Shown in pieces: positions 650 through 13,101 of a stretch of 64,000 nucleotides of DNA. A model generated the notes under the pieces. The model ran no database searches and was not told the origin of the DNA. It worked only from the letters and a program-made list of their open reading frames with translations. A program made the position numbers and the translations under genes. Source of the DNA: an uncultured bacterium (GTDB lineage Bacteria > Babelota > Babeliae > Babelales > Babelaceae); contig OY970332.1 of NCBI GenBank assembly GCA_963717435.1, forward strand, positions 704,001-768,000. The letters are read 5' to 3'. Every line of letters begins with the position of its first letter. Within the stretch, counting starts at the first letter, position 1.

Positions 650-733
650 GCCGGGGTGGCGAAACTGGCAGACGCACGGGACTCAAAATCCCGCGGTGGC
701 AACACCGTGTCGGTTCGACTCCGACCCCCGGCA
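650..733 (+). tRNA. tRNA-Leu(CAA), CCA end not encoded
   Basis: GCCGGGG/CCCCGGC acceptor stem, CGGGA-CTCAAAA-TCCCG anticodon arm, long variable arm, GGTTCGACT T-loop. Confidence 0.95.
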
Positions 734-751: not shown

Positions 752-1093
752 ATGATCGATTCAAATTGTCTGTTTTGCAAAATTATCTCCGGTCAAATTC
801 CAGCCGAAATAATAAAAGATACTGAGCAAGTCTTGGTCATCAAAGACAAGTTCCCAAAAGCCCCAATTCATTATTTAATCATCCCCAAAAGTCACGTTAA
901 AGATATTCAGTCAATAGATCCAAAAGATTCTTGGATGGCTGCAAAGACCTTTGAAGTTGCAAAACAACTTTCTGAGGAAAATCCAGAAGCCAAAGATTTT
1001 AAGCTTGTTGTTAATTCCGGCTACGGCGCTGGCCAAAGGGTGTTCCATTTACACACCCATTTTTTAGCTGGTAGATTGCAGGGCGAAGTTTAA
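752..1093 (+). CDS. HIT family nucleotide hydrolase (HinT-like)
   Basis: N-terminal CLFCKI, GQRVFHLHTH histidine triad. Confidence 0.92.
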   Translation: MIDSNCLFCKIISGQIPAEIIKDTEQVLVIKDKFPKAPIHYLIIPKSHVKDIQSIDPKDSWMAAKTFEVAKQLSEENPEAKDFKLVVNSGYGAGQRVFHLHTHFLAGRLQGEV

Positions 1094-1659
1094 TTTTTAT
1101 CATCTACAATGTCTTCTATTTCCATAAGGGCGTAGTAAAATTCTTCGTGACCGCCATACTTAAGACTTTCATCTTTTAATAAAGATTTAATTTTAAGTAG
1201 TTTTTCGTTTGCTATATTTAGCACTTGGTTTTTATCCGTTTCTTCGTCACAAATTAAATGTATGTCTAAAATTACGTCATGTAGCTGTTCGGCAGTATCT
1301 TCTGGAGAAGCTGCATTTAGGGATTGTTCTGTTAAAGATTTAATTTTAATTAGCTTGCTATTATTTTTTTCCAAAAACTCTACCAAAGTTTTAATTTCTG
1401 AAAGTTGTTTGGATAAATTTTGTTGTGTTATTTCAGACAATTTTTTTGTTGCTTTTTGTTCGCTCAAAATTTCAATGTTTCTATCATTTGATTTTGAATA
1501 TTTTCTTAAATTATTTAAGTTTGTTTTTGGTTGTAGCAAAAATCTTGTTCTAGAAAGCTTTGCGCCGGTTTTTAATAAAGTCGCAAACATTGCATGTGAT
1601 TTGGATTGGGATAACATAATTAATGAGAGTAGGATAAAATTATTGAATGTAGATTTCAC
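1090..1659 (-). CDS. Secreted hypothetical protein, paralog 1 (signal peptide + presequence-like segment + helical domain)
   Basis: GTG start with AGGAGA RBS; N-terminus shared with the two adjacent genes. Confidence 0.8.
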   Translation of the reverse strand: MKSTFNNFILLSLIMLSQSKSHAMFATLLKTGAKLSRTRFLLQPKTNLNNLRKYSKSNDRNIEILSEQKATKKLSEITQQNLSKQLSEIKTLVEFLEKNNSKLIKIKSLTEQSLNAASPEDTAEQLHDVILDIHLICDEETDKNQVLNIANEKLLKIKSLLKDESLKYGGHEEFYYALMEIEDIVDDKN

Positions 1660-1674
1660 TCTTTCTCCTTTGTA

Positions 1675-2136
1675 TTATCTAGTTTTTTCTTCCCAGTAAG
1701 TTTTTTCCCAGAACTCTTTTTGTTCAGGGTTCTTTTTTATTAGCTCTTTCAATTTCTCATATTCTTCATTGTTCTTTATTAAATCAATTCTTTCAATAAG
1801 TTTTAGTTTTAATTTAATTATCTTTGCAGCTTGTTCTTTTTCAGTTATTTCCCATTGCTCTACTTCATTTAAAAAATCTTTAATCATTACAAAATGATAC
1901 GGGTAAACTGAGTCTAGGCTGTCCTGAACCTCTTTATAATTATTGTATTTGTTATCGAATTCTTTTCTTTCTAAGACATATTTTCTTAGGCTATTTATCG
2001 TTTTTGGTTGTAACAACAATTTTGTTCTTGAAATCTTTGCGCCGGTTTTTAATAAATTACTAAACATAGAGTTTAGTTTGGCTTGAGATAGTATAATTAA
2101 TGAGATTAAAATAGATTTTTGAAAGTTCGATAACAT
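1675..2136 (-). CDS. Secreted hypothetical protein, paralog 2
   Basis: 153-aa ORF; first ~53 aa homologous to neighbours. Confidence 0.8.
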   Translation of the reverse strand: MLSNFQKSILISLIILSQAKLNSMFSNLLKTGAKISRTKLLLQPKTINSLRKYVLERKEFDNKYNNYKEVQDSLDSVYPYHFVMIKDFLNEVEQWEITEKEQAAKIIKLKLKLIERIDLIKNNEEYEKLKELIKKNPEQKEFWEKTYWEEKTR

Positions 2137-2177
2137 AATAGGTCTCTTTTCTTTAGGTTCCTGATGTATATTGTCTT

Positions 2178-2756
2178 TTAATCTTGTTTTAGGCCTAACT
2201 CCTTTTTAAGTTCATCTGTAAGTTCTTCTATTTTTTTATTAGTATGGTAAATATTGGTTTCATTTGCCCCACAACGGTATAGGTCATCCGCCAAGTATCT
2301 AATTTTTTCTATCAAATAATTAATTTTATATACATTTTTTGTAGGGCTTGGTTTTCTTGCAAGTGTTTTTAATATTGATTTAATTTCTACGAGTTCTCTA
2401 GTTTGTTCTGAATGGATGGAATCGTGTTTTGTTTCTAAGTCTTTTAAATATTCTATTATTTTTATAACTTTATTATCACAAAGTTCTTTGGGATCGATCT
2501 CTTCTATGAATACAGGATGCCCTTGTATTATTTGTCCATTTTCATTTTTAATATAGAATTCTTTAAATTTCCCAATTTTAACATCATAATCTTGTGATTT
2601 GAATCTTCTTGAGCTTAAGTTTGTTTTGGGGTTTAAAAGAAATTTTGTTTTTGAAAGCACTTTAAGTTTGTTCAAGCTGCCAAACATGCAGTGCAATTTG
2701 GTTTGGGATAATATAATTAATGAGAGTAAAATGTATTTATTGAATCTTGATAACAT
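2178..2756 (-). CDS. Secreted hypothetical protein, paralog 3 (start revised to MLSRFNK)
   Basis: ATG at 2756 preceded by AGGAGA; aligns with starts of paralogs. Confidence 0.8.
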   Translation of the reverse strand: MLSRFNKYILLSLIILSQTKLHCMFGSLNKLKVLSKTKFLLNPKTNLSSRRFKSQDYDVKIGKFKEFYIKNENGQIIQGHPVFIEEIDPKELCDNKVIKIIEYLKDLETKHDSIHSEQTRELVEIKSILKTLARKPSPTKNVYKINYLIEKIRYLADDLYRCGANETNIYHTNKKIEELTDELKKELGLKQD

Positions 2757-2824
2757 AGTTTCTCCTGCTTTTTGTATAAATCTCAAGACGAGATTTTACA
2801 ACAAGTTATTTGCTTAGACAATAA

Positions 2825-5057: not shown

Positions 5058-5564
5058 ATGAATTTTAAAAACAAAATTTCACAGTATTTATTATTAAGCT
5101 TTATTATTCTTGGTTTTCAAAAAACTTCATGCATGGAAGTGGCTCAAGAGATTGCTTCTAGCGCAATAGCCGGCGCTGCTGCACGTACTTTGATTTTTGA
5201 AAATTTGCCAGGGTTATTTAAGGCAGAATTTAATAAAGACAACAAAAACAGTAATAAAGACGGTAATTCAAAGCGCGAAAGTAAAACAGACTGGAAAAGC
5301 TGGGCCCACGGTAGTGCTACCCTAATAAATTGCTTTAATATTGTTTTAGCTGCGCGATTTATTTTTAGAAAAAATGATATGATTAGCTATGCGCAATGGG
5401 GAACGCGGTGGTTTTATTTGCCCTCTGCTGCTGCAGGATCTCACTTTGAACGCAAATTTGTTAGGTCATTAAAAGATAATAAGACGTTGAAAAATCATGA
5501 AGATCTGGTTGATGCCTCTATGCCAGTCGTGCTTGCTGCTTTGCAGTATCTTGTAACTAAATAA
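5058..5564 (+). CDS. Secreted/membrane hypothetical protein
   Basis: GGAG RBS; signal peptide ending TSC|ME. Confidence 0.7.
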   Translation: MNFKNKISQYLLLSFIILGFQKTSCMEVAQEIASSAIAGAAARTLIFENLPGLFKAEFNKDNKNSNKDGNSKRESKTDWKSWAHGSATLINCFNIVLAARFIFRKNDMISYAQWGTRWFYLPSAAAGSHFERKFVRSLKDNKTLKNHEDLVDASMPVVLAALQYLVTK

Positions 5565-7849: not shown

Positions 7850-9392
<1,543 letters not shown>

Positions 9393-9490
9393 CGAGGGAG
9401 ATAATTAGATCCGACGACTCTTTAATCTTAGAAGTGTTACATTGTACGGTGATAAAGAATTCATAATCTTATAGGTTTTTTAGAATTACT

Positions 9491-9567
9491 GGGCCTATAG
9501 CTCAGCTGGTTAGAGCACCCCGCTGATAACGGGGAGGTCAGTCGTTCAAGTCGACTTAGGCCCACCA
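9491..9567 (+). tRNA. tRNA-Ile(GAT)
   Basis: Cloverleaf, CCCCG-CTGATAA-CGGGG anticodon arm, CCA end; rrn spacer. Confidence 0.97.
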
Positions 9568-9617
9568 AAAGTGGCCTAGTAATCTGAGATCTCGTCTAGG
9601 TTATGTTCTATAATATA

Positions 9618-9692
9618 GGGGATGTAGCTCAGTTGGTAGAGCTCCGCTTTGCACGCGGAGGGTCATCGGTTCGACTCCGCTCATCTCCACCA
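9618..9692 (+). tRNA. tRNA-Ala(TGC)
   Basis: GGGGATG acceptor with G3:U70, TGC anticodon, CCA end. Confidence 0.97.
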
Positions 9693-9764
9693 ATATTTCG
9701 ATCTGGCTGAGTATAATAAGGTCTAGAATTCTTTATATATATCATAGATGTTTAAATTAAAAAA

Positions 9765-9789
9765 TTCTTGTGTTCTTTGAAATATTTGT
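9765..9789 (+). promoter_or_regulatory. BoxA / 23S processing stem 5' arm (pairs with ~12934-12957)
   Basis: TCTTGTGTTCTTTGAAATATTTG is near reverse complement of CAAATATTTCAAAAACACGAGA downstream of 23S. Confidence 0.6.
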
Positions 9790-9856
9790 AATGTAATAAT
9801 TGCTGAATAGTATAAGTTAATACTACAATCTAAGTAAATAAAGTCATTAAAAATTT

Positions 9857-12877
<3,021 letters not shown>

Positions 12878-12985
12878 GCTATAATTTAAAAAAGTCTAAA
12901 CAACTTAGTCGAAAAAACTAGTAAGAATTATCATCAAATATTTCAAAAACACGAGATTAAATTTTGAATATGAATCATAAAAATT

Positions 12986-13101
12986 TCCTGGTGCGTATAG
13001 CTGTGGGGTCACACCCGTTCCCATTCCGAATACGGAAGTTAAGCTCACAGCGCCGATGATACTTGGCTGGTAACGGGCTGGAAAAGTAGGTAGTGCCAGG
13101 A
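12986..13101 (+). rRNA. rrf: 5S rRNA
   Basis: TCCTGGTG...TGCCAGGA ends, CCCATTCCGAA.ACGGAAGTTAAG. Confidence 0.97.

Follow-up and report, generated by a model that had tools for sequence, protein, structure and literature searches.

What is a conserved, strongly basic stretch doing directly behind the export leader of a bacterial protein? The question is raised by three small genes, g1, g2 and g3, at one end of a 64,000-nucleotide (nt) stretch of DNA from an uncultured bacterium of the Babelaceae. This stretch, called the window here, covers positions 704001-768000 of a single-contig genome of 1,198,203 bp with 34.6% GC (G000). A preliminary description of the window had proposed that the three proteins carry a bipartite address, an export leader followed by a presequence for the host mitochondrion, as a modular cassette on interchangeable cargo. 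Our analysis leads us to favour, tentatively and with slightly less than even confidence, a broader reading in which g1-g3 form a Sec-exported, genus-restricted family with a conserved basic peptide that targets or anchors the proteins after export.

A narrow family with a conserved front

The genes run head to tail on the minus strand, separated by spacers of 15 and 41 nt, and were read as follows:

1090-1659, minus strand: g1 (P0002), open reading frame (ORF) of 189 amino acids (aa) with a GTG start
1591-1659, minus strand: leader of g1
1498-1590, minus strand: basic segment of g1
1093-1497, minus strand: acidic helical body of g1, net charge -9
1665-1669, minus strand: AGGAG ribosome-binding site of g1, 6 nt upstream of the GTG
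1675-2136, minus strand: g2 (P0003), 153 aa
2068-2136, minus strand: leader of g2
1978-2067, minus strand: basic segment of g2, followed by a body of net charge -3
2178-2756, minus strand: g3 (P0001), 192 aa from ATG 2756
2688-2756, minus strand: leader of g3
2601-2687, minus strand: basic segment of g3, followed by a body of net charge -2
2762-2766, minus strand: AGGAG ribosome-binding site of g3, 5 nt upstream of ATG 2756

The open frame of g3 extends back to TTG 2786; we placed its start at ATG 2756 because the AGGAG site sits before that codon. Each protein begins with a leader of 23 aa, ending SHA (g1), LNS (g2) or LHC (g3), and a methionine comes next, with no AGGAG-like site ahead of this internal Met. 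The basic segments that follow are 29-31 aa long, contain no Asp or Glu and 5-7 Ser/Thr, carry net charges of +7, +7 and +8 and terminate in RKY, RKY and RRF, respectively. On re-reading, the gene layout, the leaders with their three ends and the segment coordinates given in the preliminary description proved exact.

Leader and basic segment together form a cassette. A profile of the cassette alone matched in its own genome with 89-98 bits, a similarity far beyond chance because the E-values run from 1e-25 to 3e-28. In a six-frame hidden Markov model (HMM) search of the same genome, separate models of cassette, leader and basic stretch each matched only g1-g3, the next hit having an E-value of at least 0.028. 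Where residues are identical, the codons are identical too at 5 of 12 positions between the g1 and g2 leaders, at 11 of 16 between the g1 and g3 segments and at 9 of 14 between the g2 and g3 segments. These synonymous differences point to a cassette held by constraint on the protein, not by recent copying, and for the comparisons of g1 with g3 and of g2 with g3 we rejected the view that recent gene conversion alone explains its conservation. The exception is the g1-g2 segment (19 of 23 identical codons, 84% nt identity), whose likeness may reflect a recent duplication or gene conversion.

Searched in full with an HMM, 1.84 billion representative proteins gave eight matches at E≤0.001, seven of them true members of the family: g1-g3 themselves and four metagenomic proteins, of which P0004 (178 aa) and P0005 (193 aa) are full-length and P0006 and P0007 are fragments. 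All motif and charge counts below refer to these seven. The eighth match, the repetitive zinc-finger protein P0008, covers profile positions 35-58 only (24 positions) and was dropped. A word-indexed homologue search found five proteins. No credible member came from 40 relatives searched with the whole-protein profile, which gave one weak body-only match (E 0.005), or from a further 260 genomes of the phylum, for which the cassette-only profile was used. Seven of these 260 gave marginal matches (E 0.004-0.009, 16-18 bits), which we set aside; five lie in frames of at most 45 aa with stops and two cover the leader part only. Pattern scans of genome and metagenome contig collections yielded no confirmed locus, look-ups in the ESM Atlas gave no usable match, and none of five family proteins reached any cut-off in Pfam or NCBIfam (best E 0.02-0.8). 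By these searches, the family is a true orphan, very narrow and restricted to the genus.

No part of the protein is better conserved within the family than the basic stretch. Its S-x-T, L and K positions are invariant in all seven members, and a dibasic pair plus bulky residue is kept at the end of the stretch throughout, even where Arg is missing. The bodies diverge. That of g3 is 58% identical to P0004 over 84 aa (E 7e-31), the tail of P0004 is 44% identical to the g1 body over 62 aa (E 1e-5), and a profile of the g3 and P0004 bodies found, among 4103 ORFs and five bodies, the g1 body as its sole other match (E 0.009). For the g2 and P0005 bodies no relation to other bodies was detected. The P0004 body is a mosaic, with its first 84 residues resembling g3 and its last 62 resembling g1, a pattern suggestive of recombination between family members or of the loss of a domain. 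The earlier claim that homology stops right after the segment, where unrelated cargo begins, does not hold for g1 and g3, whose bodies are linked through P0004. Nor did we find a modular cassette on interchangeable cargo, as it occurs on no protein outside this one small paralogous family. Judged from these alignments, g1-g3 make up a single family of quickly diverging paralogues, whose bodies may have recombined.

AlphaFold2 was run on alignments of 6-7 sequences and gave poor models (mean predicted local distance difference test score, pLDDT, 55.3 and 57.0). In these low-confidence models the bodies are helical, with that of g3 folding as a beta-hairpin followed by four helices, and the basic stretch has a pLDDT below 50 and does not pack on the body.

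The leader and the methionine behind it

Leader calls and cut sites were assigned throughout by rule, from small residues at -3 and -1 and a hydrophobic run. A crude call gave 1170 ORFs in the genome, and the simple rule marks 472 of them as leader-bearing. By the same rule, the family has Sec-type signal peptides of the kind cut by signal peptidase I. The n-region holds one Lys, the hydrophobic core comprises about 10-13 uncharged residues, and in all seven members the predicted cut falls directly before the Met, with A, S or C at -1 and S or L at -3. No member of the family has a lipobox; position +1 is Met, and the sole Cys, in g3 at -1, is not conserved. A Tat motif was likewise missing, as none of the seven has RR ahead of the hydrophobic core. 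In sequence, the first 23 aa look like the ordinary Sec-type export leader of this genome. We also considered an algal bipartite plastid signal and rejected it, as +1 is Met, with Phe or Leu at +2 and no aromatic residue at +1. Co-translational entry into the endoplasmic reticulum (ER) of the algal type does not apply to genes that lie on a bacterial chromosome behind bacterial ribosome-binding sites.

The genome encodes what such leaders would need. It has one signal peptidase I gene (Peptidase_S26, E 1e-36) and, for the outer-membrane step, two secretins and a T2SSE-type ATPase. VirB4, the marker of type IV secretion, was not found in the genome; type III secretion was not searched for. The export half of the proposed bipartite address is therefore upheld by leader shape, -1/-3 residues and the signal peptidase gene, as a rule-based assignment. 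A second T2SSE-type ATPase match (genome 297436-298582, minus strand) contains eight stop codons over 834 bases and is probably a decayed gene. Three ATP/ADP translocases suggest, by homology, that the bacterium depends on host ATP; with its small genome it is probably intracellular. In published relatives among the Dependentiae, signal-peptide-bearing proteins are proposed, in the parts of the genome papers available to us, to leave by a type II system (PMC4378268, PMC6561590).

The Met directly behind the leader had been described as a second Met that opens the conserved segment. We counted residues behind the hydrophobic run in all 472 leader-bearing ORFs. Met is about fourfold enriched 4-6 residues past the run (30, 28 and 27 cases vs 7.5 expected per position), and in 90 of the 472 the junction consists of a small residue and then Met. 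The next residue in these 90 is Glu in 42, Asp in 13 and Phe in only four; g3 itself stands outside the 90, the crude caller having begun it at the upstream TTG. The same junction occurs in 48 of 140 leader-bearing ORFs of G004, a genome of the same family, and in 39 of 159 of G040, from another family of the order (first 400 kb of each), vs 2 of 66 in 450 kb of E. coli, where Met shows no positional enrichment. Of the 90, 37% have a Shine-Dalgarno-like motif ahead of the leader (35% genome-wide) and 1% have one ahead of the internal Met (6% for random internal codons). Translation starting at the internal Met was rejected on this ground. The second Met is present in g1-g3 as described. It is, however, generic to the leaders of this lineage and is mostly followed by Glu or Asp, and therefore it is no mark of a presequence. 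These counts suggest that Met at the junction is the ordinary first residue of exported proteins in the lineage, and that g1-g3 are unusual in what follows it.

Within the window, other examples of the junction are found at 5058-5564 (plus strand), 40662-42776 (minus), 48342-48692 (minus) and 48719-49081 (minus). In some leader-Met proteins we noticed by eye Lys/Arg clusters resembling nuclear localization signals about 10-25 residues from the new N-terminus (genome 876666-877535, plus; 1169536-1170096, minus; 1031464-1032540, minus), in a proteome that is Lys-rich. As a simple and checkable rule, the leader-Met junction could improve the prediction of secreted proteins in these genomes. The accessible text of the Babela and Chromulinavorax genome papers mentions neither the junction, nor a basic post-leader stretch, nor this family.

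The basic stretch and what it may do

Lack of acidic residues is by itself no rarity; 18 of the 472 leader-bearing ORFs have neither Asp nor Glu in a comparable 30 aa. Ranked by post-leader net charge among the 472, g2 (+7) and g1 (+6) stand at the top, and the first 18 mature residues of g1-g3 carry +4 each vs a median of about -1 in the leader-Met class, in which 10 of 90 reach at least +3. None of this positive charge lies in the first six mature residues. All seven members have the composition of a presequence (net +6 to +8, no Asp or Glu, 5-7 Ser/Thr per 28-31 aa), in a stretch that becomes N-terminal only if the leader is cut.

Beyond composition, the likeness to a presequence found no clear support. 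Hydrophobic moments were computed for eight segments on two scales with windows of 11, 14 and 18 residues and compared with composition-matched shuffles. The maximum moments were 0.42-0.76 (Eisenberg scale, 11-aa window; real presequences were not included as a positive control), the fraction of shuffles reaching the observed moment was 0.08-0.97, and g3, P0004, P0005 and P0006 fell below the shuffle mean. Not one of the eight segments exceeded its shuffles, and these values lend no support to the amphipathic helix implied for the segment. Cleavage by the mitochondrial processing peptidase (MPP) and Icp55 takes the motif form R-x-[YFL]|[SA]. In this strict form, it is found at the segment end of one member in seven (g1, R-K-Y|S), and R-x-[YF] is found in four. 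P0005-P0007 end in K-K-F or K-K-I, with Lys for Arg in all three, and in P0005 and P0006 the whole stretch is free of Arg. An acid-free basic segment ending R-x-Y/F therefore describes g1-g3 correctly and fails for three of the seven members, and its equation with an MPP/Icp55-type end is not supported. The mitochondrial half of the bipartite address is left with composition and gains no support from amphipathicity or from the Arg motif. Mitochondrial presequences are loosely conserved, and basic N-termini often score as presequences by chance. The conservation of the stretch suggests, as far as seven sequences can tell, that a specific sequence is recognised and not a loose set of physical properties. 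A likeness of an [RK]-x-L-x-[QN] word inside the segment to the export motifs of eukaryotic parasites, seen by eye, was set aside, as those motifs act in the eukaryotic ER.

The same plan recurs elsewhere in the genome, in a second tandem pair outside the window:

394475-395134 and 395181-395834 (genome positions), minus strand: two tandem genes, 43% identical to each other

In their products the leader ends in a small residue and M[FL] comes next; behind it lie 41-45 basic residues without Asp or Glu, then an acidic helical region and additionally a C-terminal hydrophobic segment. No relation to g1-g3 could be detected (hhalign probability 6.6%), and the single search made for the pair gave no homologues outside its own genome. 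A strict search for the plan in G000 returned six ORFs, namely g1-g3, the second pair and one small Cys-rich ORF; none was found in 400 kb of G004 and two doubtful frames were found in 400 kb of G040. We also noted an ORF of 100 aa (genome 544202-544504, minus strand) whose leader ends NC|MFAT, with the same first four mature residues as g1, and continues with an acid-free basic stretch of 27 residues. A plan that recurs without sequence similarity suggests selection for physical properties. This is what targeting peptides would show and it therefore favours an address-like role of the basic stretch, for which the unrelated second pair is the best argument.

The explanation that we favour can be set out as follows. 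The three proteins would be exported by the Sec pathway as tandemly duplicated small proteins, and signal peptidase I would cut the leader after the small residue, directly before the Met, as in about 90 other exported proteins. The mature protein would then start with a flexible, acid-free stretch of about 30 aa and charge +7 or +8, with the acidic, mostly helical body next. After export, the charge of the stretch would hold or steer the protein onto an anionic surface or a receptor, candidates being the bacterium's own envelope, a host membrane or the import receptor of a host organelle, and the variable acidic body would be the working part. The gene layout, the start codons, the pattern of conservation, the narrowness of the family and the Sec, signal peptidase I and secretin genes are read from the sequence itself, whereas we infer that the leader is cut before Met, that the proteins leave the cell and what the basic stretch does.

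Several points weigh against this explanation. The cut site before Met is predicted from the -3/-1 rule and by analogy, and the escape of the proteins from the bacterium is likewise presumed. In E. coli, positive charges close to the start of the mature part are known to impair Sec export, and g1-g3 carry the +4 described above in their first 18 mature residues, if none in the first six. The plan is seen in only five proteins of the genome, and the stretch could be a conserved part of two orphan families without any targeting role. Finally, the C-terminal segment of the second pair would hold those proteins in a membrane. It equally fits envelope proteins, and the function of the pair need not match that of g1-g3.

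The rival readings differ in where they place the protein after the leader. If the leader is removed and the stretch is a true presequence, the protein would be imported through TOM/TIM23 and cut by MPP, with or without Icp55, and the acidic body would reach the matrix. We consider this unlikely. It draws on the place of the stretch at the N-terminus predicted for the cut protein, on its acid-free +7/+8 composition with 5-7 Ser/Thr per 30 aa, on the R-K-Y|S end of g1 and on the hydrophobic-x-x-hydrophobic-hydrophobic word, a presequence motif, with which g1 and g2 open. The unrelated second family with the same physical plan is also consistent with it, as are the three translocases and the presumed dependence on host ATP. 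Against it stand the amphipathicity of all eight segments, which does not exceed shuffles, Lys in place of the MPP-position Arg in three of seven members, two of them (P0005 and P0006) entirely without Arg, and the single strict motif. Invariant residues in what is the best-conserved part of the protein would be unusual for a presequence, the Met at the junction is generic to leaders here, and a presequence-like score may arise by chance in any basic N-terminus. In the literature, effectors of rust fungi show that a signal peptide and an organelle transit peptide can in principle work one behind the other (bioRxiv 10.1101/019521), and a member of the Dependentiae reorganises the mitochondrion of its host (PMC6561590). 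The preliminary description had drawn on this last effect. It is indeed published, in the accessible text, for Chromulinavorax destructans; that genome, however, has 1,174,272 bp and 33.7% GC (PMC6561590), and by size and GC the one analysed here is another.

Alternatively, leader and stretch might tether the proteins to the anionic envelope of the bacterium itself, with exposed acidic bodies that diversify as in a variable surface family. The tandem array, the contrast between 53 conserved N-terminal residues and bodies that diverge fast, the g3-like front and g1-like tail of P0004 with their hint of recombination among bodies, the 84% DNA identity of the g1-g2 segment and the C-terminal membrane segment of the second pair all fit this. 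We nevertheless regard it as distinctly unlikely, as the proteins have no lipobox or other known anchor, the array holds three copies only, without repeats or switch elements visible by eye, and binding of the envelope by the basic stretch is conjecture. The stretch could also be a pro-peptide. While the protein is exported it would neutralise the acidic body or shield it, and a protease of the bacterium or of the host would clip it off at the [RK][RK] pair before Y, F or I. The dibasic pair plus bulky residue present in all seven members, even without Arg, would suit such a site, and the charges are opposite in g1-g3 (stretch +7/+8, bodies -2 to -9); the P0005 body, however, has a charge of +1. 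No candidate protease was found, none having been searched for, and the AlphaFold2 models, poor as they are, show no contact between stretch and body, which makes this reading very unlikely in our view. The lowest probability goes to the possibility that nothing is exported, with the hydrophobic stretch as an uncleaved N-terminal anchor and the positive charges keeping the remainder cytoplasmic by the positive-inside rule. The charge of +1 before the hydrophobic stretch vs +4 in the 18 mature residues behind it, plus K20, has the right polarity. Yet an uncharged run of about 10-13 residues is too short to span the membrane, and the same form, with the small-residue|Met junction, is shared by about 90 leaders with acidic mature parts. 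We keep, tentatively, to a conserved basic peptide that targets or anchors the exported family, with the surfaces and receptors named above as candidate destinations.

Around the array, a tRNA gene lies at window 650-733 (plus strand), about 360 bases from the array end, and a complete rRNA operon with two spacer tRNAs lies at window 7850-13101 (plus strand), about 5 kb beyond the array. The first 4 kb of the window is slightly AT-richer than the genome (30.5-32.5% vs 34.6% GC).

Comparison with known systems

Tandem genes with a conserved 5' end or leader and diverging mature parts, in the reduced genome of a parasite, are familiar from the variable surface lipoprotein arrays of mycoplasmas. 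Unlike those arrays, g1-g3 lack a lipobox Cys at +1, show no repeats and number only three. Even if no organelle is involved, the family offers a compact test case for a conserved post-leader module in an almost unstudied group. A bolder proposal is that cleavage by signal peptidase routinely creates Met-initiated N-termini in this lineage, and that g1-g3 and the pair at 394475-395834 use theirs as a presequence-like or transit-peptide-like import signal for a host organelle. We think it improbable; if true, bacteria would have their first example of a Sec leader with an organelle import signal behind it. Were the basic stretch an organelle address, Sec and a type II-like channel alone could deliver proteins into a host organelle, and this would offer a way to study how these energy parasites treat the mitochondria of their hosts.

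Published Dependentiae genomes, those of Babela massiliensis and C. destructans, resemble ours in the available parts of their reports in having many leaders (44% of ORFs in C. destructans (PMC6561590), vs 472 of 1170 here), a type II-like system as the sole route proposed and ATP/ADP translocases (PMC6561590, PMC4378268). These parts cover ankyrin and enzyme families and not proteins of the g1-g3 type. Effectors such as VopE of Vibrio cholerae and EspF of enteropathogenic E. coli (EPEC) are, according to the excerpts available, bacterial proteins with an N-terminal mitochondrial targeting sequence and type III/IV delivery (PMC5357651, PMC2891835). They share with g1-g3 an N-terminal address for host mitochondria, which for g1-g3 is only proposed. 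They have no Sec leader and pass by injection straight out of the bacterial cytoplasm, so that their address stands at the primary N-terminus, whereas g1-g3 begin with a predicted cleavable Sec-type leader. Our literature search found no case of a bacterial Sec leader followed by a presequence, which is not proof that none is in print.

The nearest proven counterpart of a leader plus organelle address is the CTP1-CTP3 family of rust fungi. In the accessible part of that study, these effectors carry a signal peptide and then a transit-peptide mimic that serves for organelle import after loss of the signal peptide, with import and processing proven by experiment (bioRxiv 10.1101/019521). They have no sequence similarity to g1-g3 and differ in coming from a eukaryotic pathogen, in being secreted through the ER and in going mainly to the chloroplast, while g1-g3 are known from sequence alone. 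What the two share is the arrangement itself, a secretion leader followed directly by an N-terminal stretch, in a small lineage-specific family.

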